A stretch of DNA of 64,000 nt. It comes from Candidatus Poseidoniales archaeon (lineage in GTDB: Archaea > Thermoplasmatota > Poseidoniia > Poseidoniales > Poseidoniaceae). Below, in pieces: positions 30,115 through 63,982 of the stretch (its first letter is position 1; each line of letters opens with the position of its first letter). The position numbers were made by a program, and so were the translations under genes. The notes beneath the pieces were generated by a model. That model saw only the letters and a program-made list of their open reading frames with translations, ran no database searches and was not told the DNA's origin. The stretch spans positions 222,423 to 286,422 of the forward strand of contig BOYQ01000003.1 of the NCBI GenBank assembly GCA_019651595.1, written 5' to 3'.

Positions 30115-33013
30115 TTGGAAGAGTTCTGGCACAACCTCACCATCGAGGACAGTCTGGTCGCTCAGCAATCAACCGAACACGGTATCAGCGTTGATGAGGT
30201 GGTTGAGCGAAGGAAGCGATACGGTAGCAACAAGCTGAACGAACCCGAGAAAACCTCGGCCTTTCTCCGGTTTCTTCCCAGTACAACGACCCGCTGAACT
30301 ACCTGTTGATCGGTGCCGCCATCGTTGCGTTTGCTATTAATCCAGACCATCCAGGAGATGCGATTTTCATCTTTCATTGTCCTGACCGCCAACGCGTTCT
30401 TTGGATACTGGCAGGAAAACCAAGCGGAACAAGCCATGGATTCGCTTAAACAAATGTCGATCTCAAATTGTGTGGTCATCCGGGGCGATTACGAGAGCGA
30501 AGTTCCCACGTCTGAATTGGTTCCGGGTGACGTTGTTCGCTTGGAACAAGGCTTGAACGTCCCGGCAGACGTCAGGATGATTTGGTCGCAGCAATGCAAA
30601 GTGGACGAATCGGCGCTGACGGGTGAGTCCCTGACCATCCGGAAATCAACCGATGCGCTTCCTGCTGAGACCGTTTTAGCCGACCGAAACAACATGGCCT
30701 TCATGGGCACGACGATTTCCTCGGGACGCGGTTTGGGGCTGGTGGTAGCGACAGGGATGCAGACCGAACTCGGAAAAATTGCGAGCAACATCGCCGACGC
30801 ACAAACCCCGAAAACGCCGCTTGAACTCAAACTGGAGAGCCTTGGAAAATTCCTCGGGTTCATTGCCCTCATCGTGGCCATTCTTCTGGTCTCACTCAAC
30901 CTCGTGGTCTCCTACGGAAAACCTGGCGTCGACCTGAAAGAAGTGGTCGTCCAGCAGTTCATTGTCGCCATCGCCATCTTTGTAGCCATCGTGCCTGAAG
31001 GCCTGCCCATCATTTTGGTCATCACCCTTTCCTTGGGGATGCGGAACATGGCGCGCCACAAAGCCATCATTCGCCGCATGAAAGCGGTCGAAACCCTCGG
31101 GTCAACCACGGTGATTTGCTCCGATAAAACCGGGACGCTCACCAAGAACCAAATGACGGTGCGGCAAATTCAAACCCTCGATCGAACCTTTGATGTAACC
31201 GGTGAAGGATTTGAGCCCAACGGTGCATTGGTCCGCAACGGAGTGGAACTTACGGATGCCGACCTTCAAAGCCGCCAAGCGGATTTGGGTTTCCGATTGC
31301 TGGGCGCATGTCTCTCGCTTTGCCACAATTCAAACATCGTGAAATCCGAAGGACACTGGCAGGCCATCGGCGATCCAACGGATTCCGCTTGTGCCGTTGC
31401 AGGCTGGAAAATCAACGGCGATGTCAAGAAATTCTCGCACCGCCATCCACGGTTGAATGAGTTCTTTTTTGATTCCGTGCGGAAAAGGATGAGCGTCGTT
31501 CACGAATACGAAGGTGAACGCTGGATCTTCGCCAAAGGGAGCGCAGGAGGGTTCCGAGACATCGCGACCACCAAAATTGTCGACAACGAATACGTACCAC
31601 TCTCGGACGATGACCGCGCTCAAATTTCAGCCATGAACGATGACATGGGTTCGCAAGCCATGCGCGTCATTGCCCTTCTGGCTCGAAAAGTGAACGCCGA
31701 TGAGGACATCGACGACATTGATTCCGTTGAATCAGATTTGGTGTTCTTGGGGCTCATCGGTATCATGGACCCACCTCGTCCTGAGGTCAAGGCTGCGATT
31801 GAGACTTGCCTGCGTGCGGGCATCAAGGTGAAAATGATCACCGGTGATCAGCAGATGACGGCCGCCGCCATCGGTGCTGAATTAAACATCACGTCCGCTT
31901 CGGGCGCATCCTTGGACGGGAAAGAACTCGCATCACTGAGCGATGAAGAACTCATGGAGGCTTCAGGGGAAGTCGCCATTTACTCCCGCGTGACACCCGA
32001 CCAGAAGATGAGAATCGTTTCATCGCTGCAGGAACAAGGGGAAATCGTCGCCATGACGGGGGACGGTGTCAACGATGCGCCTGCGCTTTCGGGCGCCAAC
32101 ATTGGCATCGCCATGGGCATTGCTGGCACGGACGTTGCCAAGGATGCCGCTGACATGGTGTTGCAGGACGATAACTTTGCCAACATTGTCCACGCCGTGG
32201 AAGAAGGACGGAAGATCTACCAAAACATTCGCAACTTTGTCCGCTATCAGGTGTCGACCAACGTCGCAGCCGTTTCCTTGTTGGTGCTCGCAACCTTGTT
32301 TTTCGGGCCCGAGGCTTTGCCGCTCACGGCCACGCAGATTCTGGTGATCAACATCCTGATGGACGGGCCCCCTGCAGTCGCGCTCGGTGTCGAGAAAAAA
32401 CACGGGAGCGTCATGGACCGGCCGCCGCGTCCGGTGGACGAAGGTCTCCCCAACGGCCGAGACATTTCCCTGATCTTTTACTTGGGCGCTGTGATGGTCG
32501 TGGGATCGCTGATGGTCTTCTGGCTGGCAGGCGGGAGCTTAGCCGGTGCTGAACCCTGCACGTTGCGCACCACCGAAACCAGTACAACGGCATTTGACAT
32601 GGAGGCGTGTCTCGCTGGCGAACAAGCCGCCATCGATGACTGGCAATCCATACGCCGACGGCCACTTCCAGCACGCCCAAACCATGACGTTCGCTGTGTT
32701 CATCGTGTACCAGTTGTTCAATGTCATGAACTGCAGATCCAACGAGGAAAGCGTGTTTGAATTGGGCTTGTTCTCGAACCCCGCCATCAATTACGCCTTG
32801 CTCATTTCATCGGGTCTCTTGTTGTTCTTTGTTCAACTTGCAGAGGTATCGATTCCGGTGCTGGGCATTGAAATCGGTTCCCTCTTGCGGACCAATCCAT
32901 TGACTCAGAACGACTGGACGGTGGTTGTCCTGATCGCATCGAGCGTGTTTATCATTGAAGAGTTCCGGAAACTCATCGTCAAATCACGCATCTTTGCTGT
33001 TCGGCGGCGTTGA
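30115..33013 (+). CDS. P-type cation-transporting ATPase (type IIA, Ca2+-ATPase-like), several frameshifts
   Basis: Cation-ATPase N-terminus (…GISVDEVVERRKRYGSNKL…). DKTGTLT phosphorylation site. MITGDQQMTAAAIG and GDGVNDAPAL. The C-terminal TM segment sits in the frame of ORF 32546-33013. Frames shift near 30290-30370 and 32640. Confidence 0.85.
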
Positions 33014-54907: not shown

Positions 54908-56941
54908 ATGGATGAGGATGTGCGGCGCATGCAAGCTGCCGTCCTCGAAGGCATTCCACTGGCGTTGCCGGAGCATCCAGGAATCGATTCGTCCGTTGAC
55001 CACGCACCCAACCGACGGCAAATTCTCACCGCAGAAGAAAAATTGTTGGCCCTTGAAAACGCCCTTCGCTACATTCCACCGCAACACCATGAGTCACTGG
55101 CTGACGAATTCATGGACGAACTCAACACCTACGGGCGCATCATCATGCGGCGCTACAGACCCACCAGCCACCCCATGAAAGCTTACCCGCTGGATGCCTA
55201 TCCCTGCGCCTCACGGCAGGCTGCGTCCATCATGCTGATGATTCACAACAACCTTGATCCCGCTGTTGCGCAATTCCCCCACGAGTTGATCACGTACGGT
55301 GGAAATGGCTCGGTGTTCCAAAATTGGTGCCAGTACCGTTTGGTCATGAAGTACCTCTGTGAGATGACCGACCAGCAGACACTGGTCATGTATTCTGGCC
55401 ACCCTTTGGGACTTTTCCCCTCTGGTCCAGCGGCGCCTCGCGGTGGTGACGAACGGTATGGTCATCCTGAATTATTCGAGTCAAGACGACTACGAACGTA
55501 TGAATGCGCTCGGCGTGACACAGTACGGCCAAATGACCGCTGGTTCCTACATGTACATCGGGCCTCAAGGCATTGTCCACGGCACCACCATCACCTTGCT
55601 GAACGCCGCCAGGCTTCACCTTGGGTTGAGTGATGAATCGAATCTTTCCGGTATCACCTTCATCACCAGCGGCCTGGGTGGTATGTCGGGCGCCCAAGCC
55701 AAAGCCGCCACGATCGCAGGCGCTGCTTGCATCATCGCAGAGACGAACGCTCATGCCGCTCACAAGCGCCACAACCAAGGCTGGTTAACCACGGTCACGG
55801 ACGACATTGACGACGCTATCGACCAAATGGTCCAAGCCGCCAATGACGGAAATGCCATATCAATCGGTTTGATTGGAAACATCGTCGAATTATGGGAACG
55901 ATGCGTAGAGCGAGAGGTTCACGTGGATTTGGGGAGCGATCAAACCAGCCTGCACAACCCGTATCAGGGAGGTTATTTCCCAGCAGATCGAACCTACGAG
56001 GAGAGCGCCACGATGCTGTCCGAAGACCCGGCCCGATTTCGGTCGGAGGTACAGTCCACCCTTCGGCGCCACGCTGCCGCCATCAACACCATGGCAGAAC
56101 GCGGGATGTACTTCTGGGATTATGGCAATGCTTTCCTTTTGGGAAAGGCCTCCCGTGTCGGGCCGATGTGGTCAACGAGGATGGGACCTTTCGTTATCCC
56201 TCCTACGTTGAGGACATCATGGGGCCGTTGTGCTTCGACTTCGGTTTTGGCCCGTACCGTTGGGTTTGCACGAGCGGCGACCCTGCTGATTTGAAGCGGA
56301 CCGATGAAATTGCAGCGGATGTCCTTCGGGGCATGCGTGATGGCGCTCCCGAAGACGTGCGACAGCAAATCAACGACAACCTGCGCTGGATTGAGCAAGC
56401 AGGGGCAAATCAACTCGTCGTTGGAAGCCAAGCCCGCATCCTCTATGCTGACGATGTAGGCCGACGAAACATTGCACTGGCGATGAATCAAGCCATCGCT
56501 TCTGGAGAATTGCAGGGACCGGTGGTGTTGGGTCGAGACCACCACGATGTATCGGGGACCGACAGCCCCTACAGAGAAACGGCCAACATCCGAGATGGCT
56601 CAATGTTCACGGCTGACATGGCCGTCCACAACGCCATCGGTGATGCCTTCCGCGGCGCCACATGGGTGAGTCTCCACAACGGTGGTGGCGTGGGCTGGGG
56701 GGAGGTGATTAACGGTGGTTTTGGATTGCTGTTGGACGGCACGGCCGAAGCCGAGGAGAAACTCTCATCCATGCTTCATTGGGACGTCAACAACGGCGTC
56801 GCTCGACGTGCATGGGCGAGAAACCCTGGTGCTCGCTCTGCCGTGGTACGCGCCATGGAAGCCGAAGACGAGTTGACCGTCACCCTCCCGCACCTCGTCG
56901 AGTCCTCCGTGCTCGACCGCTTCCGAGGTGATGGACAGTGA
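54908..56941 (+). CDS. hutU: urocanate hydratase, frameshifts near 55430 and 56160
   Basis: Three frames carry …YGGNGSVFQNWCQY…, …GPQGIVHGTTITL…SGLGGMSGAQ…, …HHDVSGTDSPYRETANI…LHNGGGVGWGEVINGG…. Confidence 0.85.
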
Positions 56942-58491
56942 GCCAACGCCCCGTGGTGTATGCTGACGGACGAACGCTTTCCGCACAGGAAGTGGCCATG
57001 GTGGCCAAAGGCCAAGCGGACGTTGCTGTGTCCGATGACGCATGGCCCGGTATCCATGCAGCACGACAGGTCGTTGAGCGAATTGTGTCCACGGGCGACA
57101 CCGTTTACGGCATCAACACGGGCTTTGGTGCACTTGTCCGCGAACGCATTTCAACCGATGACTTGGCCCAACTTCAGATCAATCTCATCCGTTCCCACGC
57201 AACGGGTGTTGGTGATCTCATGACGGTGGAAGCCGTTCGTGCCATGATGATGGTGCGGCTGAACTCGTTGTGCAAAGGGCATTCTGGGATTCATCCCGAT
57301 TGCATTCGACAATTGGTGCTCTACCTGAACCACAACGTTCACCCTGCTGTTCCACGAATCGGAAGCTTGGGGGCGAGCGGGGATCTTGCACCGCTCTCTC
57401 ATCTCGCCCTCACGCTTATCGGTGAAGGAGAAGTTCTTGTCGATGGCAAAGTAGAATCAACCGCTGACTTCCTGTTCAGCAACGGTTTGGTCCCCGTCGA
57501 ACTCACGGCCAAGGACGGGCTGTCATTGATCAACGGCACAAGTCAAATGACGGCTTATGCGGTGCTCGCTCAACAAGAACTGGCTAGCGTCTTGTTGCTG
57601 GCCGATGTCATCTTGGCCATGTCCATGGACGCTCGTTCGTGCAGCCTTACGCCGTCAAGACCTGAGGTTCACGACGCACGCCCCCATCCGGGACAACAAC
57701 GGGTCGCTGAACGCCTTCGCACGTTGCTCAGCGGTTCGGAAATACTCCAAGACCACGCCTCGTGCGACCGGGTTCAAGACCCCTATTCTTTCCGTTGCGC
57801 CCCCCAGGTCCACGGTGCCGTTTACGAATCCTTCCAGCGGCTGGGAGATATGCTCGCAAGGGAAATCAACAGCGCCACCGACAACCCGCTGATTTTCCCC
57901 GAACCCAACCGGCCCGGTGAGCATGAGGTTGTTTCTCAAGGCAATTTCCACGGTGAAATTGTCGCCCTAACATGCGATGCCATGAGCTTGGCCATGTTTG
58001 AACTTGGATCGATCTCTGAACGACGGATGGACCAGATGCTCGATCCCGCTCGAAGCGAGATGCCAGCGTTTCTCGCTAAGGATTCGGGGCTTGAGTCAGG
58101 GCTGATGATCGTTCAGTACGTTGCAGGAGCATCACTCGCCGAGCTCCACGGTCAGGCAACGCCTCGGTCGGCGTTCTCGACCACGACTTCTGCGGGGCAA
58201 GAAGATCACGTCAGCATGGGGGCGACGGCAGCATGGAATCTGCACGTTGGTGTACGTCGCTTAAGCGAAGTCCTGGCGTGTGAAGCCCTCATCGCCGCAG
58301 AAGCCCTCGAACACGCAACCCTGCGGTCATCACCTCACGTTCGGGCGATGCATGACCTCGTGAGGACCGTCGCCTCAGCCCTGGTCGGCGACCGCTCGAC
58401 ATCCGCAGAATTGATTCAGATTGCAGACGAACTTCGTCAGCCAGGATGGCTGGCCCGATTGGAGGCAGAACACGGACGCTTACCGCGCTGA
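56938..58491 (+). CDS. hutH: histidine ammonia-lyase
   Basis: MIO-forming ASG motif (GSLGASGDLAPLSHLAL). Overlaps the hutU stop. Confidence 0.9.
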   Translation: MSQRPVVYADGRTLSAQEVAMVAKGQADVAVSDDAWPGIHAARQVVERIVSTGDTVYGINTGFGALVRERISTDDLAQLQINLIRSHATGVGDLMTVEAVRAMMMVRLNSLCKGHSGIHPDCIRQLVLYLNHNVHPAVPRIGSLGASGDLAPLSHLALTLIGEGEVLVDGKVESTADFLFSNGLVPVELTAKDGLSLINGTSQMTAYAVLAQQELASVLLLADVILAMSMDARSCSLTPSRPEVHDARPHPGQQRVAERLRTLLSGSEILQDHASCDRVQDPYSFRCAPQVHGAVYESFQRLGDMLAREINSATDNPLIFPEPNRPGEHEVVSQGNFHGEIVALTCDAMSLAMFELGSISERRMDQMLDPARSEMPAFLAKDSGLESGLMIVQYVAGASLAELHGQATPRSAFSTTTSAGQEDHVSMGATAAWNLHVGVRRLSEVLACEALIAAEALEHATLRSSPHVRAMHDLVRTVASALVGDRSTSAELIQIADELRQPGWLARLEAEHGRLPR

Positions 58492-59364
58492 AAGAAGGTG
58501 CTCAAGGTCTTGGACGTTCTTTTCAACGTCCAACAGCGACATCATCCGATAGTTGAACATTTCACGTTCGGTGACGGTGAGTGCGCTTTCATGTGTTTCA
58601 AGCAAACGAAGGGCATCGATGGCCCTCACGATGTCAAGTTCAACCGACCTGTACACGGAAAAAGCATCGTCCATGTCGGTCAGCGATAAGGCAGGTTCGA
58701 GCGCGGACAAATCAAACCCCATGCGTTTCCATTGAAGCATGCGCCGTGCGAGAACAGCCGATGTAAATCCAAGTCGAGGTAAACTCACCAAATGCGTGAT
58801 AACGGCGTCGGACGATTGACTGACACTGGGAGATTTCACCAGTCCAACCTTTTCTCCCCCATCCCCCGTCGTGTCGTGTTCAAGACTGCGGTGGTCAACC
58901 GATTCGGAGGCGGTGGGCTCTGCCACGGTCATGAGCGGTGCGATGCCGGTTAACCGCCTCCAAAAAGAGGACTCAACGGTCAACGGATCGAGGGGAAACA
59001 CGACGTCCACGTCTTGATGCCGCACGAGACCGTCCAGCCGCTGCAGCCACGCCAGTGTAGCAGGAACCGTCGAACGCGATGCAATCCAGTCAAGCCCCTC
59101 AACGATGATGAGTTCTGTATCATCGTTGAGTTGTGATTGGAGGTGTTGTTCAATTGAAGGAGCATCGGGTGGAATCGATCGTGGACTTTCATGTTCGGAA
59201 ATCCACCACATATCGGCGGTGTTGGTTGCGATATATCGCAGCAGTTGGCGCAAAGGCAGCCGACTGTAACACATGACATGTCCTGCCGTCGCGTCAATCC
59301 GGTCGGCCAAAGCACCGTACGTGGTGGTCGGCGAGGTCGATTCGAGCGTGAACAAGCCAACCAT
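58480..59364 (-). CDS. hypothetical protein, possibly DUF835-like
   Basis: …LIIVEGLDWIASRS…LAWLQRLDGLV… is reminiscent of the archaeal DUF835 core. Weak call. Confidence 0.35.
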   Translation of the reverse strand: MVGLFTLESTSPTTTYGALADRIDATAGHVMCYSRLPLRQLLRYIATNTADMWWISEHESPRSIPPDAPSIEQHLQSQLNDDTELIIVEGLDWIASRSTVPATLAWLQRLDGLVRHQDVDVVFPLDPLTVESSFWRRLTGIAPLMTVAEPTASESVDHRSLEHDTTGDGGEKVGLVKSPSVSQSSDAVITHLVSLPRLGFTSAVLARRMLQWKRMGFDLSALEPALSLTDMDDAFSVYRSVELDIVRAIDALRLLETHESALTVTEREMFNYRMMSLLDVEKNVQDLEHLLSAR

Positions 59365-59479
59365 TGCCCTACCTCGACGATGCTACGCTCGATGCAGGTT
59401 CTAAGGAATTCCGCCTACAACAAGGTGCAAGTCATCAATCATTATATTGCCCTTCTTCGTGGAAATAAGTGGTGGAACG

Positions 59480-61306
59480 ATGACGGATGAAGAAAATGAA
59501 TCGGTTGCCATGGCTGAGTGCGGTGCTTGTCGAGCCGTCATCCCCATCGATTCGACGGAATGCCCCGAGTGTGCAACGAAATTTTCGGGTGTATCCGAAG
59601 ATGCACTTGGGGAGTGCGGGGGCTGTCAAGCACTGGTCCCCCTCGACTCGACACGTTGCCCCGAGTGTGGTGTTCTCTTCGTAGCGGACGACGTCGTTGA
59701 TATCCTTCGCCAGTGGGTTGCAGACACCGGCATTAACATCCGGAAGTTGTTCGACAAGTTCGATGAAAATGACGACGGCACCATTGATTCAGATGAACTC
59801 AAGCGTGGTTTACTCAGTTTGAACCTCGCCGACCTTCCACCATCGCAGGTTGACCGCCTTGTCGCCGAAATCGATGCAGACGGTAACGGCGTCATCGATC
59901 TTGATGAGTTTGACGCCATCCTGATGGGGTCGAACGCTGCACAGGAGGAGGCGCCCGCACCCGTAGAGACCGACGGAACGGCCGAAGATGATACATCCGT
60001 TCTTGAGGGCGAAGATGACGGCGGAGAGGCTGACGAAGAATCAGCTGATGCAGAGAGCGATGCCGAGGAAGCAGATGCATCGGTCGAAGAAGAGGCTGAA
60101 GAGGAGGCCGAAGACGAGGCTGAGGAGGAGGCAGAGGATGATGAAAGCGCTGCGGAGGAAGAAGAAGCCGGTGAAGAAGAAGATGAGGCACACGGCATCG
60201 ACGATGAAGCGTTTGACATTGACGAAGAAGAGGATTCACCGGAAGCCGACGCGGACGAAGAAGAACCTCATCGTCCGCTGGCCGCGCTGTCCGCGCTGGC
60301 GGACCTGATGGATGAACATGACATCTCAGCGCAACGCCTGTTCAATGAACTCGATGCAGACGGCAACGGTGTCGTATCCATTAGCGAACTGAAAAGCACG
60401 ATTGCAGAGAAGTACGGTGATGATCTCGACCTTGAGCAAGTGAACGCCATCATGGAGGGGGCTGACGTCGACGGTGACGGTACCATCGACATCACCGAGT
60501 TCATCGGTTCGCTGGAAGATTACGAAACCATGGAGGAACTGGTAGAGGAGAAAGTCTTCCCGTCTCCGTGGCAGAAGCGCATGATGTCCAAATCGTGGAA
60601 CGACACGGTATGGCCCATCCTCCACGTTGCGTTCGGCATCATGGTTGCGCTCTTTATCGCCAACGGGATGTTTGGATTTGTCGATGGAACCGGTGGCAAT
60701 GTCGCCTACATTCCGAATGATTCTGGTTTGATACCAAGTGGGAACATTGTTGAGGGCGACATTTACCCGTGCGACGAGAAGTACCAGATGGACGGTTGTC
60801 GAAACTCGCTCACACCCCTAGCAGGTGCGAACGGCTCCCTTTCAATGCCAACCGGTTTCTACTGGGACGGCATCATGCTGATCGCCCTCTCGGTCATCGG
60901 AATGGCGACTACCCTGTTCTTGCATCTCGTGAAAGCCCCCGAGTGGCGCGCAAGGGCCAAAGCCATGAAAGAGTTTGAAACGGACAAAGCCGAAGCAGCA
61001 GAATCGGCCGAGGAATCCAGCGATGAGACGGACGATGATGAAGCGGTTGCGGACGAAGATGAAACCGAAGATGATGAAGCCTACGAAGAGGACGATGAAC
61101 TCGAGGATGACGTCGACGAAGACACGGATGACGAGGCCGAAGAAGAAGGGATTGACATTGGTTCGCACATTGGATTGGTGTTTGACGACGAAGAGGTCTT
61201 TGGGGTCATCGTAGAATTTGATGACGATGAGGAAACAGTGACCATCGAAGAAGATGGCACTGGCGACCTTGTGACCGGCTACCAGGAAGACATGTTCCTT
61301 GAGTGA
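59480..61306 (+). CDS. membrane-anchored calcium-binding protein: double zinc ribbon + 4 EF-hands + 2 TM helices + poly-acidic tail
   Basis: Zinc ribbons CGAC…CPEC and CGGC…CPEC. Canonical EF-hand loops DENDDGTIDSDE, DADGNGVIDLDE, DADGNGVVSISE, DVDGDGTIDITE. Hydrophobic segments around residues 395-420 and 470-495. D/E-rich linker and tail. The long ORF begins at 59447; the first Met in a good context is at 59480. Confidence 0.7.
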   Translation: MTDEENESVAMAECGACRAVIPIDSTECPECATKFSGVSEDALGECGGCQALVPLDSTRCPECGVLFVADDVVDILRQWVADTGINIRKLFDKFDENDDGTIDSDELKRGLLSLNLADLPPSQVDRLVAEIDADGNGVIDLDEFDAILMGSNAAQEEAPAPVETDGTAEDDTSVLEGEDDGGEADEESADAESDAEEADASVEEEAEEEAEDEAEEEAEDDESAAEEEEAGEEEDEAHGIDDEAFDIDEEEDSPEADADEEEPHRPLAALSALADLMDEHDISAQRLFNELDADGNGVVSISELKSTIAEKYGDDLDLEQVNAIMEGADVDGDGTIDITEFIGSLEDYETMEELVEEKVFPSPWQKRMMSKSWNDTVWPILHVAFGIMVALFIANGMFGFVDGTGGNVAYIPNDSGLIPSGNIVEGDIYPCDEKYQMDGCRNSLTPLAGANGSLSMPTGFYWDGIMLIALSVIGMATTLFLHLVKAPEWRARAKAMKEFETDKAEAAESAEESSDETDDDEAVADEDETEDDEAYEEDDELEDDVDEDTDDEAEEEGIDIGSHIGLVFDDEEVFGVIVEFDDDEETVTIEEDGTGDLVTGYQEDMFLE

Positions 61307-61682
61307 GCACATGAAAAAATCCGACCCACTCGATCGGCTGAACGGCCTGGCTGTCTGCCCTGTGTGCGGTTGTTTTGACCGAAAGGGAATGTACCGTTGT
61401 TCGGAGTGCGGAACCTTTCACGCAGGCGGCATCATGGAGGAACGGGAAGCACCTCCTCCAAGCGAACAGCGAGAATTGGAGGCAGCAGCACCACCGCTCG
61501 ACCCGTCCGTTTATTCCTTGGGGCCGAACGCCTCGATACCCGAAGAATCATTCGACGAATCCGACGATGTGAGATCGTGGGAAGGCGGGTCCACCGATTT
61601 CACCTTTGATGAGGACGATGACCCGCCGGTTGCGCACATCACCCTCCCCGAAGCTGAAGACGTGACTTCGGATGAAGATTAA
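61299..61682 (+). CDS. small zinc-ribbon protein with an acidic C-terminal tail (hypothetical)
   Basis: CPVCG…CSECG ribbon. Overlaps the end of the EF-hand gene by 8 nt. Confidence 0.4.
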   Translation: MSEHMKKSDPLDRLNGLAVCPVCGCFDRKGMYRCSECGTFHAGGIMEEREAPPPSEQRELEAAAPPLDPSVYSLGPNASIPEESFDESDDVRSWEGGSTDFTFDEDDDPPVAHITLPEAEDVTSDED

Positions 61683-61746
61683 CTAATTGTTATTGGAATG
61701 GTGTTAATCCAATATACCAATCAAATGTCCATTCAATGATGTTCAT

Positions 61747-61823
61747 TGGTGGGCTCGGAGAGAATCGAACTCTCGATCTTTGCCATGTCAAGGCAACGTC
61801 ATAAACCCCTAGACCACGAGCCC
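61747..61823 (-). tRNA. tRNA-Val (anticodon GAC), CCA encoded
   Basis: Reverse complement: GGGCTCG-TG-GTCT…GACG-TTGCC-TTGACAT-GGCAA-AGATC-GAGAG-TTCGATT-CTCTC-CGAGCCC-A-CCA. Perfect 7-bp acceptor stem, 5-bp anticodon stem, 5-bp T-stem, TTCGATT T-loop, GAC at positions 35-37. Confidence 0.85.
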
Positions 61824-61885
61824 TAGGTAGGTTGACCCACCTGACATTTCTATTAAATGAATTCGGTAGGCTGCCGTGATGTTCA

Positions 61886-62038
61886 TCACGCGATGATCTT
61901 GGAAATCTTCCCCGTGCACCCAGCTTGGGAACAAAATCCAGCCATCCGCGTGCGGCCGTTGGCCATGGCAATTTTTTCACCGTTCTTGATTGGACCGTAC
62001 GTTTTGCACTTCATGCAATAACCTTGAATCTCTGCCAT
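61886..62038 (-). CDS. small Cys-rich (zinc-ribbon-like) protein
   Basis: MAEIQGYCMKCK…GFCSQAGCTGKI: four Cys arranged as two knuckles. About 50 aa after trimming ORF 61886-62119 to the internal Met. Confidence 0.35.
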   Translation of the reverse strand: MAEIQGYCMKCKTYGPIKNGEKIAMANGRTRMAGFCSQAGCTGKISKIIA

Positions 62039-62290
62039 GGTGCTCAAAGTCGGCGAGTAGGTTCGAATATTGAACGCTTCTGTTGAATATTCACCAATTT
62101 TCCTTTTTTTGACCCTCAAAGGAGGGGTTCAAAGGTTGAAAACAACAAGAAAATGGAAATGACGCAGCCCAGGGATCAGAAAAACGCTGTACTGCGGCCC
62201 ATCTTCCAGTCATACATGTCGCCTGCCATCGTACGGAATCCGGCCGTTGTCGCATAACTCACATTATGCGACGATACGTGGCACGCAAAA

Positions 62291-62632
62291 TCACCCATTC
62301 TCAGGAAAGCCCAAGTTTTGGAGCTCTTCGTTTGGAATTTCAAAGATCCCCACCAAGGGCGGACCCAACAAAAGACCCTCAATGCCGCCGTCTTCCGCAT
62401 CCATCACCGTTTGGATTTCGGTCGAGACACGTTTCCAGTCAGCCGCAGAAACGAATGCCGATTGAACGAGCATCATGCTCGATGATTCTGCACCCGTGCC
62501 CATCCATGCCCCGATGCAGCCAGGTTGTCGCCGCTTGTACTCTTGACGAGCCCGCAACATTCGCCGTAGCCGCGCATCCGATCCTTTTCTGCCCGAGCAC
62601 ACAATGGTCTCTACCCATGCCATGATATTCAC
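62291..62632 (-). CDS. hypothetical small protein downstream of hutI (possibly ABM/Dabb-like)
   Basis: 113-aa ORF co-oriented with hutI. No convincing motif. A +strand ORF 62266-62625 overlaps it. Low confidence. Confidence 0.25.
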   Translation of the reverse strand: MNIMAWVETIVCSGRKGSDARLRRMLRARQEYKRRQPGCIGAWMGTGAESSSMMLVQSAFVSAADWKRVSTEIQTVMDAEDGGIEGLLLGPPLVGIFEIPNEELQNLGFPENG

Positions 62633-62692
62633 CTAATTATGATTTGAACAACATCTAATTGAAACCATAGTGGAATTACCTATAATCCAAAG

Positions 62693-63982
62693 TCAATGCG
62701 AAATGAATTGCCCGTTCAGAACCGTAGCGGAAAACGGGGAGCCCGATGGACGCAAACAAACGGCTTCCCAATGAGGTCCATCGACGATGTTGAAATTTGC
62801 AACGGCGCCTTCCTTGAGAACGCCGTGTGGCCGTCCCGACGGGTGGGGTGTGATTTTGGCTGCTGAAGCCGTGACCGCCTCCAAGGCCAACAGCGGATTC
62901 ATGCCGCATCGCTGAACCATCAGCGAACACATCAGCGGAAGGCTAAGTGTTTGGCAGTTTGGATTAAAATCGGTTGCGAGGGTAAACGGCACATCATGTT
63001 CCACGATGTCGGCCATATCGGGCCACTGATCGCCCATCGCATACGGCGTTCCCGGTAGGAATCCGGTGTTCACACCGTTTGATTTCATGTCCAAGCGCAC
63101 CTCCATGGGCGTGTGATACGCATGATCCGCCGTCTCAACACCGAGGGCCGAGGCGAGTTCAGCGCCGCCCCCATCCACAAATTCGTCAACGTGCATCCTT
63201 AATGCCAGGCCGGCCTTTCGTGAGGCTCGAAGAATGTCTTCGCTTTCTTCCACCGTGAACCACCCCGGTTCACAAAACACGTCAGCAGACCGAGCAATTC
63301 CTTGCTCGACGACGGCAGGCAGCTGTTCACTCAGCAAGGTTTCAACGTAAACCTCTCGAGGTGTTCCTGGAGGCGTGTCATGGGCTCCCATCCACGTTGA
63401 GTCGATGGTCGGTGTGTGCGAGATGCCGTTGAGGCGTGAGGCCACCTGGAGCAATCGCAATTCCGACTCGGTTGACAACCCGTAGCCACTCTTGGCTTCA
63501 AGGTGCGTTGTGCCCGTCCGGAGAGCTTCCCGTAATCGTTTGTAGCCAAGCGCGAACAACTCGTCATCACCCGCAAGGCGAGTGCTTTCAACCGTTGAAC
63601 GAATTCCACCGCCCATGGCCGCAATTTCAGCGTATGACTTCCCTGCCTGCCGCCAGGATACTTCCCTTGAGCGATCACCCGCCCAGAGCAGGTGGGTGTG
63701 GCCGTCGATCAGACCCGGGACGATCGATTGACCAGCCAAATCGTGTACGGCGAGGTCAGCGGTGGCGGCGTCAACGTCATCATGATGGAGGCTGTATTCA
63801 TCGACAACTTCATCTGAATCTTTGATAGATACAATAACGTCGTCTTCAATGATAATTGCTTTTCCAATGCCGTCTATTGAATTCTCATACGAAGTTCGCT
63901 CGTGGGCGAAATGCACGAGCGGACCGGCGTTGAGAAAGACGGCTCGCACGATTCGGTTGAGGGGAAGAGGGTTGAAGAACAA
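62693..63982 (-). CDS. hutI: imidazolonepropionase (amidohydrolase superfamily)
   Basis: …IVPGLIDGHTHLLWAGDRS… metal-binding HxH. …KSGYGLSTESE…. C-terminal …HVDEF…. Confidence 0.85.
   Translation of the reverse strand: MFFNPLPLNRIVRAVFLNAGPLVHFAHERTSYENSIDGIGKAIIIEDDVIVSIKDSDEVVDEYSLHHDDVDAATADLAVHDLAGQSIVPGLIDGHTHLLWAGDRSREVSWRQAGKSYAEIAAMGGGIRSTVESTRLAGDDELFALGYKRLREALRTGTTHLEAKSGYGLSTESELRLLQVASRLNGISHTPTIDSTWMGAHDTPPGTPREVYVETLLSEQLPAVVEQGIARSADVFCEPGWFTVEESEDILRASRKAGLALRMHVDEFVDGGGAELASALGVETADHAYHTPMEVRLDMKSNGVNTGFLPGTPYAMGDQWPDMADIVEHDVPFTLATDFNPNCQTLSLPLMCSLMVQRCGMNPLLALEAVTASAAKITPHPSGRPHGVLKEGAVANFNIVDGPHWEAVCLRPSGSPFSATVLNGQFISH

Follow-up and report, generated by a model that had tools for sequence, protein, structure and literature searches.

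A conserved Poseidoniales membrane protein with a double zinc ribbon, calmodulin-like EF-hand pairs and a predicted Tudor/SH3-like C-terminal barrel

The window analysed here is a stretch of 64 000 nucleotides from a Candidatus Poseidoniales archaeon (contig BOYQ01000003.1, positions 222 423 to 286 422). It contains, inside a hut cluster, an upstream DUF835 gene on the opposite strand, the gene of an EF-hand and double-zinc-ribbon membrane protein (ORF A) and a small zinc-ribbon gene (ORF B). ORF A is present in the ORF list of the window as 59447..61306 on the forward strand. An alignment of 25 homologues places its conserved start at ATG 59480 (MTDEE...) and not at TTG 59447, and the protein accordingly has 608 residues encoded at 59480..61306, stop codon included. 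A TATA-like TTATATT at 59442–59448 is a candidate archaeal promoter and GGTGG at 59471–59475, before the ATG, a candidate ribosome-binding element; both were read directly from the forward-strand letters, and a sigma-70-type promoter scan gave no match around 59442..59475. More than 120 full-length homologues were found at identities of 61–98%, and homologues occur in 114 species-representative genomes; wherever they are named, both sets belong to the Poseidoniales (Marine Group II). ORF A is a genuine gene that Marine Group II archaea conserve strongly, and its product is a single-copy, order-wide protein of the Poseidoniales. Among the ways in which its proposal could fail, the sequence-only reading had named a gene confined to this genome and a frameshift that joins unrelated genes. 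The homologues dispose of the first, and a chimeric origin is ruled out because full-length homologues down to ∼40% identity retain the same architecture. Literature searches found no paper describing the protein; Poseidoniales-specific calcium-binding modules are mentioned in PMC9258230, the supplements of which give no family detail.

ORF A contains all four elements that had been recognized in its sequence, i.e. zinc ribbons, EF-hand pairs, two hydrophobic helices and acidic linkers. Asp and Glu together make up 31% of the protein, compared with a window median of 12.5%, and the net charge, estimated as the sum of the segment charges, is about −160. Column identity and residue invariance were computed over 56 orthologues, giving mean column identities of 0.82 for the zinc ribbons, 0.84 for the C-terminal barrel and 0.77 and 0.57 for the EF-hands. 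The double zinc ribbon (residues 11–68; 59510..59683, forward strand) was assigned from its cysteine pattern, the orthologue alignment and the Pfam DZR model. Its cysteines are arranged as C14-x2-C17...C28-x2-C31 and C46-x2-C49...C60-x2-C63, and all eight are invariant in 56 of the 56 orthologues, which bears out the two tandem C4 ribbons proposed from the sequence. Pfam DZR (PF12773) scores 24.4 bits on ORF A, just below the cut-off of 27.3, with the CxxC...CxxC pattern present, and 27.3–31.6 bits on its orthologues, divergent homologues exceeding the cut-off at 29.0–31.6 bits. The pair of ribbons represents an internal duplication, which can be traced at the DNA level (76% over 58 nt).

Two EF-hand pairs follow on the forward strand. 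Pair 1 (residues 84–148; 59729..59923) contains the loops DENDDGTIDSDE and DADGNGVIDLDE, and pair 2 (residues 270–345; 60287..60514) contains DADGNGVVSISE and DVDGDGTIDITE. In an EF-hand, helices flank a 12-residue loop in which position 1 is D, position 3 D/N/S, position 5 D/N/S/G, position 6 G, position 8 hydrophobic and position 12 E/D. The PROSITE pattern PS00018 matches all four loops of ORF A, at residues 95, 132, 292 and 329, and no other ORF of the window. The Pfam pair model EF-hand_7 (PF13499) scores 78.9 bits in two stretches (cut-off 30), the better of which spans residues 295–353, and EF-hand_1 (PF00036) scores 74.7 bits in four stretches (cut-off 25.4). None of the four loops varies at position 1 or 12 in any of the 56 orthologues, and position 12 is always E. 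The loops thus clear the profile and pattern thresholds that had been proposed as a check, including the residue at position 12. Pair 1 aligns with calmodulin residues 13–73 and pair 2 with residues 85–144 (E values of 1e-14 to 1e-16). Where calmodulin lobes have their hydrophobic pocket, ORF A keeps F or L. Exactly four canonical loops are present in 48 of 59 species-level genes. A calcium-binding capability of ORF A is predicted from these features and is well founded at the level of sequence, because the loops pass their thresholds, the ligands are invariant and the gene is widely conserved.

The lobes are separated by polyanionic disordered linker 1 (residues 151–268; 59930..60283, forward strand), which was delimited by composition and contains 52% D+E in 118 residues with a net charge of −60. 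Its column identity is 0.31, and across orthologues its length ranges from 87 to 166 residues and its D+E fraction from 0.41 to 0.70. Linker 2 (residues 506–556; 60995..61147, forward strand), delimited by composition and AF2, contains 67% D+E in 51 residues with a net charge of −34; it has a column identity of 0.41 across orthologues and an AF2 pLDDT of ∼36. The acidic linkers described earlier are therefore present. Their charge is conserved across orthologues (median D+E of 0.53 and 0.65, with K+R near 0), whereas their sequence and length are not. Linker 1 carries the motif IDDEAFD at residues 240–246, which is confined to the closer clade. A docking motif common to linker 1 and ORF B, I-x-[DE]-E-x-F-[DE], was considered and rejected as a general feature after 60 loci had been compared; it co-occurs in the closer clade only and is missing from many orthologues with four EF-hands.

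This composition invites the view that ORF A acts as a buffer of Ca2+ or other divalent cations on the cytoplasmic side of the membrane, with four EF-hands and about 95 acidic linker residues absorbing leakage from seawater, in principle like the acidic Ca2+ stores of calsequestrin or the calreticulin C-domain. The content of 31% D+E, the net charge of about −160, the conservation of linker composition in place of sequence and the membrane anchor are all as expected for a buffer. However, the zinc ribbons, the folded barrel, the conserved partner in the operon and the neighbour resembling KaiC would all be superfluous in a buffer; a single membrane protein is unlikely to buffer much unless it is very abundant, and the acidic spacers are explained equally well as entropic linkers. 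We regard buffering as an improbable main function.

The membrane hairpin (60605..60931, forward strand) consists of TM1 (residues 376–400), a 61-residue outside loop and TM2 (residues 462–484). The two hydrophobic helices noted in the sequence are seen both as Kyte–Doolittle peaks at approximately these residues and as AF2 helices (371–398 and 458–484), which are connected by a loop of low confidence. The hydropathy profile contains these two hydrophobic segments only, with no N-terminal signal-like stretch, and the outside loop has no Pfam or NCBIfam match. Invariant or near-invariant residues of the hairpin are H382, N395, H482, C431 and C440, both cysteines being located in the outside loop. 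Over 35 sequences, the 15-residue flanks contain 2.7 and 4.5 K+R, versus 2.2 in the loop of ∼66 residues. Since positive residues are concentrated before TM1 and after TM2 and not in the loop, the positive-inside rule, as the one basis for the assignment, predicts an N-in/C-in topology in which both ends of ORF A would be cytoplasmic.

The opposite orientation would place the EF-hands and ribbons outside the cell, where, with Ca2+ bound from the seawater, they would form a structural or adhesive part of the surface. Canonical EF-hands would be saturated by seawater Ca2+, and EfhP, the best-studied bacterial EF-hand sensor, is predicted to be periplasmic (PMC9132961). Nevertheless, this orientation is very improbable: it would require a 375-residue arm with a net charge of about −100 to be moved across the membrane with neither a signal peptide nor an N-terminal hydrophobic segment, the positive-inside rule indicates the reverse, the cysteine zinc ribbons lie on the same arm as the EF-hands and the sole conserved cysteine pair suited to a disulfide is that of the short inter-helix loop. 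The hairpin might alternatively oligomerize into a small channel gated by cytoplasmic EF-hands, as in eukaryotic EF-hand-regulated channels. The N-in/C-in two-helix topology, whose intramembrane polar residues W378-x3-H382, N395 and H482 do not vary, and the presence of two hairpins in tandem in P0172 and P0177 would be compatible with a pore. This idea depends on a handful of residues, however; no channel family was matched in Pfam, in NCBIfam or in Foldseek searches against the PDB, both loop and helices are strongly divergent in the distant orthologues P0180 and P0181, and of all the readings considered we give it the least credence.

The C-terminal domain (residues 557–608; 61148..61303, forward strand), which ends in ...GYQEDMFLE, is predicted by AF2 and Foldseek to be a Tudor/SH3-like β-barrel. 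The acidic tail described for this ORF is accordingly right as to the acidic stretch and wrong as to a purely acidic C-terminus: the last 52 residues are predicted to form this barrel and are the best-conserved region of ORF A. The folded domain had been overlooked in the sequence-only reading. AF2 models it with five strands (pLDDT 78–86), in agreement with a fold class defined as a five-stranded, strongly bent antiparallel barrel of ∼50–60 residues. Foldseek matches in the PDB include the Tudor domains of SMN, PHF1 and TDRD3, Agenet, Spt5 KOW and Hfq; TMt values are 0.74–0.80 and r.m.s.d.s 1.2–1.9 Å, but as E is only ∼1e-2, a fold class is assigned and no family. Identity to Tudor domains, a family that reads methylated Lys or Arg through an aromatic cage, is 8–19%, and KOW, Sm, Agenet and PWWP domains match equally well. 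The domain has no Pfam or NCBIfam match. It is also found at the C-terminus of the unrelated proteins P0170, P0197 and P0174, the last of which is encoded on a contig of 41 kb whose ORFans all run in one direction. Searches for a viral origin or capture of the barrel gave only a weak phosphatase match in PHROGs, no match in GenBank phages or IMG/VR and only generic small barrels in a BFVD fold search.

Members of the family have between 0 and 6 EF-hand loops. P0180 (L085), a divergent syntenic orthologue, is without EF-hands and keeps the ribbons, hairpin, linkers, barrel and both neighbours; this orthologue had also escaped the sequence-only reading, and it provides a natural control that separates the scaffold from the calcium function. 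Because P0180 retains everything else, calcium sensing is not the core function of the family and is an accessory to a more fundamental role as a scaffold. ORF A could then be a calcium-independent membrane tether, in which the ribbons and barrel hold a partner (candidates being a cytoskeletal, division, nucleoid or ribosomal component) on acidic spacers, with the EF-hands structural, permanently loaded with Ca2+ or Mg2+ or a lineage-specific addition of little regulatory weight. Such a tether accounts well for the EF-less orthologue and its unchanged neighbours, for the variable loop number, for the ribbons and barrel being the most conserved parts and for the presence of the barrel on unrelated proteins, like a portable binding module. 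It sits less well with the strictness of EF-hand ligand positions 1 and 12 (56/56) wherever EF-hands are present, although such conservation fits a working metal site, sensor or structural alike. We consider a pure tether unlikely, while giving it more weight than a buffer.

ORF B (61311..61682, forward strand), delimited by homologue alignments, encodes 123 residues, in which an acidic tail comes after a C4 zinc ribbon (CPVCGC...CSECGTFH), as had been proposed for the next gene. It has 194 homologues of ∼122 residues and no Pfam or NCBIfam domain, and its tail contains the conserved short motifs DPSxYS, IPEExF and WxGGSTDF. Since the conserved start of ORF B in the homologue alignment is ATG 61311, the two genes are separated by a 4-nt gap after the ORF A stop, which is kept in most loci, and do not overlap by 8 nt as suggested earlier. 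ORF B is probably co-transcribed with ORF A.

The divergently transcribed neighbour (294 residues; 58480..59364, reverse strand) was characterized with Pfam, AF2 and Foldseek. It consists of an N-terminal inactivated KaiC/RecA-like domain, a disordered linker (residues 149–191) and a C-terminal five-helix domain. Its score for Pfam DUF835 (PF05763) is 32.4 bits against a cut-off of 33.1, and PF05763 is precomputed for most of its homologues, which number 149 at ∼288 residues, the single named one being from Poseidoniales. The AF2 model has a mean pLDDT of 80.8 and its best Foldseek match is KaiC (E = 7e-4), with RecA and FlaH also matched; a PDB sequence search gave no match. The P-loop GxxxxGK[ST] (Walker A) is absent from the sequence. 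A predicted KaiC/RecA-like fold, PF05763 at threshold and the missing Walker A motif place the protein in the DUF835 class, described as an inactivated KaiC that serves archaeal response regulators as output domain (PMC5847659). It resembles archaeal DUF835 proteins in having a KaiC/RecA-like fold without a P-loop and differs from them in standing alone, with no receiver domain, with its own five-helix domain and always next to the EF-hand gene. This conserved neighbour was not noticed in the sequence-only reading. In 81 Poseidoniales loci, and in two loci that are far more divergent, the order of the three genes is constant wherever the flank suffices; adjacency by itself is not proof of functional coupling, because synteny covers the entire neighbourhood and takes in the hut genes.

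A P-type ATPase elsewhere in the window (30115–33013) had been called type IIA (Ca2+-like) and linked to the EF-hand gene. No single ORF spans this interval, and the gene is split into at least three frame pieces in the assembly. NCBIfam scores are 584.8 bits for IIA2 (cut-off 798.3) and 561.5 bits for IIA1 (cut-off 703.4). The assignment to type II P-type ATPases holds; membership of the type IIA (Ca2+) class does not, given the disrupted ORF and scores below the equivalog cut-offs. The proposed tie to ORF A was dropped, as the two genes are 26 kb apart, the ATPase is broken over at least three frames and its scores are below the Ca-ATPase cut-offs; a functional link between the two is unsupported.

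Our preferred reading, with a probability of about 0.45, is that ORF A is a membrane-tethered, cytoplasm-facing, Ca2+-responsive scaffold of Marine Group II (Poseidoniales). The two-helix hairpin would anchor the protein in the cytoplasmic membrane with both long arms facing the cytoplasm. The N-terminal arm bears the double zinc ribbon and two calmodulin-like lobes split by the polyanionic disordered linker of ∼110 residues, and the C-terminal arm extends through the second polyanionic linker to the small predicted Tudor/SH3-like barrel. Seawater contains ∼10 mM Ca2+ and the cytoplasm is normally held far lower, so that a sensor at the membrane would be in a good position to register incoming Ca2+. 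Once occupied by Ca2+, the four canonical loops would open the lobes; the acidic linkers may condense as well. Both would alter which partners the ribbons, EF lobes and barrel keep at the membrane. The likeliest partners would be ORF B, probably made from the same transcript, and the inactivated-KaiC protein encoded on the opposite strand, a putative member of a domain class proposed for archaeal signal transduction. In favour of the scaffold-sensor reading we count the EF-hand scores with their invariant ligands and lobe alignments, the charge distribution around the hairpin, linkers that conserve charge, the confidently predicted barrel, and the constant three-gene order with its 4-nt gap and KaiC-like neighbour. 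We count against it that the ribbons and barrel are more conserved than the EF-hands, that P0180 has no EF-hands, that there is one candidate docking motif and it is clade-limited, that synteny extends over the neighbourhood, and that the topology derives from the positive-inside rule. A bolder extension, which we hold to be rather doubtful, is that Marine Group II possesses a cytoplasmic calcium-signalling pathway in which a membrane-tethered split calmodulin would sense Ca2+ arriving from seawater and relay the signal through ORF B and the inactivated-KaiC protein into the proposed archaeal KaiC-type network.

ORF A resembles eukaryotic calmodulin, CMLs and the regulatory domains of CDPKs in its four canonical 12-residue loops, arranged in two pairs with the pocket positions kept. 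Calmodulin proper is a soluble protein of ∼148 residues with a central helix and no other domains, a description that the 608-residue ORF A does not fit: its lobes are split by a polyanionic disordered linker of ∼118 residues in place of the central helix, it is membrane-anchored and about four times larger, it carries zinc ribbons and a Tudor-like barrel, and its occurrence is limited to a single archaeal order. In Pseudomonas aeruginosa, EfhP (PA4107), the best-studied prokaryotic EF-hand Ca2+ sensor, has canonical EF-hands, a proposed role in Ca2+ sensing and relay and a Kd of 13.7 µM (PMC9132961). Both are prokaryotic proteins with canonical EF-hands; EfhP, however, is small and predicted to be periplasmic with two EF-hands, whereas ORF A has four, is predicted to face the cytoplasm and contains three further modules, and there is no homology beyond the EF-hand. 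STIM, LETM1 and the EF-hand mitochondrial carriers have cytosolic or luminal EF-hand modules on membrane proteins. ORF A likewise fuses EF-hands to a membrane anchor, so that Ca2+ would be read at the membrane, but has no sequence or architectural relationship to them, and we know of no protein of this type that combines a double zinc ribbon, split EF-hands, a hairpin anchor and a Tudor-like barrel. ZipA, which binds FtsZ, has one N-terminal helix as anchor, a long charged linker and a small C-terminal domain. ORF A shares with such tethers the anchor, the long flexible charged linker and the small globular end domain; it is non-homologous, with a two-helix anchor and purely acidic linkers.

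Marine Group II (Poseidoniales) are the dominant archaea of the surface ocean and the most abundant planktonic archaeal order, and calcium signalling, which is well worked out in eukaryotes and patchy in bacteria, is almost unexplored in archaea. The host organisms are uncultured; the soluble arm of ORF A could be expressed without culturing them, making Ca2+ binding and partner capture directly testable, and its fixed set of neighbours provides concrete candidate partners. If ORF A is a sensor, Ca2+ would be tied to the hubs of KaiC-like signalling that have been suggested in archaea, and the calcium pathway, if true, would be the first defined Ca2+ sensor–effector module in Archaea. If ORF A is only a tether, it would still define a membrane-anchoring system specific to the Poseidoniales.

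The EF-hand gene (ORF A) occupies positions 59480–61306 of the forward strand and encodes a protein of 608 residues. The mechanical ORF covers 59447–61306 (+), and alignment with 25 homologues places the true start at ATG 59480 (MTDEENES...), with GGTGG located 5–9 nt and a TATA-like TTATATT ∼35 nt 5′ of it. All four elements claimed in the sequence-only reading (zinc ribbons, EF-hands, hydrophobic helices and acidic tracts) were recovered by Pfam, PROSITE PS00018, hydropathy and composition. EF-hand profile scoring, proposed there as a check, gave 78.9 bits for EF-hand_7 (cut-off 30) and 74.7 bits for EF-hand_1 over four stretches; the DZR match (24.4 bits) lies slightly below its cut-off of 27.3. 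The four loops (starting at residues 95, 132, 292 and 329) all match PS00018 and are canonical, with Glu at position 12, and the 64 kb window contains no match to this pattern outside ORF A. Each EF pair aligns with one calmodulin lobe and retains the hydrophobic pocket residues. Asp and Glu make up 31% of the protein (compared with a median of 12.5% among the long ORFs of the window) and the net charge is −60 for linker 1 and −34 for linker 2. Internal duplication is apparent in the DNA, both between the two zinc ribbons (59516–59573 versus 59612–59669; 76% over 58 nt) and between EF loops 2 and 3 (59855–59893 versus 60335–60373; 79% over 39 nt). We regard this anatomy as highly probable. The claim of calcium binding is solid as a prediction from the sequence, and Ca2+ binding as such is likely.

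A search of 5.8 billion proteins returned >120 full-length homologues (580–656 residues, 61–98% identity). All of them originate in marine metagenomes or in MAGs labelled Poseidoniales or Euryarchaeota; one homologue is named 'EF-hand domain-containing protein' by NCBI. Conservation beyond the source genome is also evident in a scan of GTDB species representatives, of which 114 genomes carry a relative. The retained loci include 79 from Poseidoniales, among them the original MG-II genome CM001443.1. Two are exceptions by label, L074 (CAXRJJ010000038.1, a Yoonia sp. MAG) and L081 (JAOMAZ010000001.1, a Deltaproteobacteria single-cell genome), and are probably mis-binned or mislabelled, since both display the complete Poseidoniales gene order. 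Across 56 full-length orthologues, the eight ribbon cysteines, two loop cysteines and the Asp at position 1 and Glu at position 12 of each EF loop are invariant or nearly so. Four canonical loops are present in 48 of 59 species-level genes, five or six in seven and two or three in four. In the 56 orthologues the linkers vary in sequence (column identity 0.31 and 0.41) and length (87–166 and 43–157 residues), while their Asp + Glu fraction is steady (medians of 0.53 and 0.65) and Lys/Arg are nearly absent, a pattern characteristic of disordered spacers under selection for charge. A role of ORF A as a cation buffer on the membrane side, for which the sequence-only reading had pointed to the acidic tracts, seems improbable. 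When the EF-free C-terminal half served as query, exhaustive HMMER searching detected only 91 clusters in 1.84 billion representatives. Six divergent full-length matches (P0140, P0143, P0145, P0147, P0169 and P0210) all contain zinc ribbons and EF-hands in a Pfam scan and also retain the hairpin–barrel half. This retention of the whole architecture rules out a frameshift chimera of unrelated genes; ORF A is real, and its architecture is, as judged from these comparisons, a stable unit confined to the Poseidoniales lineage.

Membrane-spanning hydrophobicity is limited to two segments (residues ∼376–400 and 462–484), with no N-terminal hydrophobic segment in ORF A. Lys/Arg clusters are located directly before TM1 (QKRMMSK) and directly after TM2 (KAPEWRARAKAMK), and in the 35 orthologues whose two segments were called cleanly, the 15-residue flanks contain 2.7 and 4.5 Lys + Arg, compared with 2.2 in the ∼66-residue loop. 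By the positive-inside rule, this distribution favours an N-in/C-in topology in which both long arms would be cytoplasmic and the outside part would consist solely of the 61-residue loop with its conserved Cys pair; the zinc ribbons are compatible with a cytoplasmic placement. An outward orientation of the protein, against which the flanking charges argue, is very improbable. Several polar residues in the helices are invariant or nearly so: W378-x3-H382 (60611–60625) at the cytoplasmic end of TM1, N395 (60662–60664) in the middle of TM1 and H482 (60923–60925) at the cytoplasmic end of TM2. Two tandem helix–loop(Cys...Cys)–helix hairpins like that of ORF A are found in P0172 (L082 1541–3460 and L083 930–2849) and P0177, basic proteins of ∼600–640 residues that have no Pfam domain and adjoin a transaldolase gene on short contigs. 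The polar residues and the tandem hairpins both hint at a mini-channel gated by the EF-hands, a reading to which we give hardly any weight.

Conservation in ORF A is highest over the last 52 residues (mean column identity of 0.84 in the 56 orthologues), which AlphaFold2 models as a five-stranded barrel (pLDDT 78–86). The acidic tail reported earlier therefore stands as an acidic linker and not as the end of the chain, as the C-terminus is a predicted folded, conserved barrel. Its best Foldseek matches in the PDB are the Tudor domains of SMN, PHF1 and TDRD3 (TMt 0.74–0.80, r.m.s.d. 1.2–1.9 Å), followed by Agenet, Spt5 KOW, Hfq and PWWP; with E values of only ∼1e-2, these assign an SH3-like/Tudor-like fold class and no family. 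The barrel is also C-terminal in the unrelated proteins P0170 and P0197, and a near-copy (IGIGSHIGLTIDDEEYFGVIIGFDDEDDLVTIKEDGSGDELTGYQDEMFLE) is internal (residues ∼940–992) in P0174 (1361 residues; L084 8001–12086), which suggests a portable binding module. In P0174 the barrel is followed by a metallophosphatase-like region (a weak NinI-like match). L084 is a 41 kb contig of unidirectional ORFans with a virus-like appearance; no match was found in GenBank phages or IMG/VR.

The gene order is hutU–hutH (+), the DUF835 gene (−; 58480–59364), ORF A (+), ORF B (+; 61311–61682), tRNA-Val, a DUF5679 gene (−) and hutI (−), and is identical in 81 related loci wherever the flank suffices; two far more divergent loci (HutH 34–37% identical) show the same order to the contig ends. 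The five inner genes lie within the histidine-utilisation (hut) cluster (56938–63982), a placement found in every Poseidoniales locus examined (L001–L081, L085 and L086) to contig limits. The 3′ ends of hutH and the DUF835 gene overlap by 12 nt (58480–58491). tRNA-Val(GAC) (61747–61823, −), just 3′ of ORF B, and the DUF5679-like Cys-rich protein of 77 residues (61886–62119, −; 22.9 bits, cut-off 27) are conserved in position among the related loci. ORF B had been described as overlapping ORF A by 8 nt; homologues instead place its start at ATG 61311, leaving a 4 nt gap that is retained in most loci. It encodes 123 residues, with a C4 zinc ribbon and a tail containing the short invariant motifs DPSxYS, P.E.F and W.GG..DF; 194 homologues were found, and Pfam recognises no domain in it. 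A motif I-x-[DE]-E-x-F-[DE] is common to linker 1 of ORF A (IDDEAFD, residues 240–246, 60197–60217) and the ORF B tail (IPEESFD, residues 76–82, 61536–61556). It was rejected as a general feature: in 60 loci it co-occurs in the closer clade only, and many orthologues with four EF-hands lack the pair. In the DUF835 neighbour (model pLDDT 80.8), a disordered linker connects an α/β domain that resembles KaiC, RecA and FlaH (E 7e-4) to a domain of five helices; its sequence lacks a Walker A motif. In archaeal response regulators, DUF835 is listed as an inactivated-KaiC output domain, and KaiC-like proteins have been proposed as signalling hubs of archaea (PMC5847659). Since synteny extends over the entire neighbourhood, adjacency by itself argues only weakly for functional coupling; the conserved 4 nt spacing to ORF B argues more strongly, for co-expression.

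The P-type ATPase that had been linked to ORF A in a calcium system gives such a system no support, as it lies 26 kb away. No single ORF spans 30115–33013; the type II P-type ATPase gene is distributed over at least three reading frames: the frame changes twice within the first ∼300 nt (N-terminal part) and once near 32546–32760, and the last 150 codons are in another frame. Neighbouring long genes are intact. Either the gene is a pseudogene or the assembly is locally in error. The best NCBIfam matches are type IIA Ca-ATPases, below the equivalog cut-offs (584.8 versus 798.3 bits). The calcium-handling story resting on the ATPase should be dropped.

The orthologue P0180 (427 residues; L085 3636–4919) occupies the same context, flanked by orthologous neighbours, and has no EF-hands. 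It retains the zinc ribbons, acidic linker, hairpin (with a short loop and without the Cys pair), second acidic linker, barrel and both neighbour genes; its lineage is much more divergent (HutH 37% identical). P0181 has a single EF pair only. Judged from these two proteins, the EF-hands form an accessory module carried by an older scaffold, the most conserved parts of which are the ribbons and barrel. P0180 also favours a Ca2+-independent tether, which we consider rather unlikely for ORF A. We favour, with a probability of about 0.45, a membrane-tethered, cytoplasm-facing Ca2+-responsive sensor-scaffold. Its anatomy, conservation and gene order are shown by the data; we infer the N-in/C-in topology, Ca2+ binding and what follows from it. 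Ca2+ entering from seawater would load the four EF loops and open the lobes, as suggested by the alignment of the EF pairs with calmodulin lobes and the retained pocket residues, and the polyanionic linkers may condense too. Either change would alter what is held at the membrane by the ribbons, lobes and barrel; the likeliest partners would be ORF B and the inactivated-KaiC (DUF835) protein.

ORF A may be likened to a calmodulin-type sensor fused with a membrane anchor, a principle familiar from eukaryotic proteins; it belongs to the EF-hand superfamily, yet is no calmodulin. EfhP of Pseudomonas aeruginosa, the best-studied prokaryotic EF-hand sensor, is predicted to be periplasmic and has two EF-hands and a Kd of 13.7 µM (PMC9132961); the two are related in the EF-hand motif alone. 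A comparative study mentions Poseidoniales-specific gene modules 'with calcium-binding domains', with no detail (PMC9258230), and our literature search found no publication on the ORF A protein. It matches no described architecture and is a new domain combination made of known parts. ORF A represents a real, order-wide, uncharacterised protein family, for which P0180 provides a natural control; the soluble arm and this EF-less orthologue make its function testable without culture.
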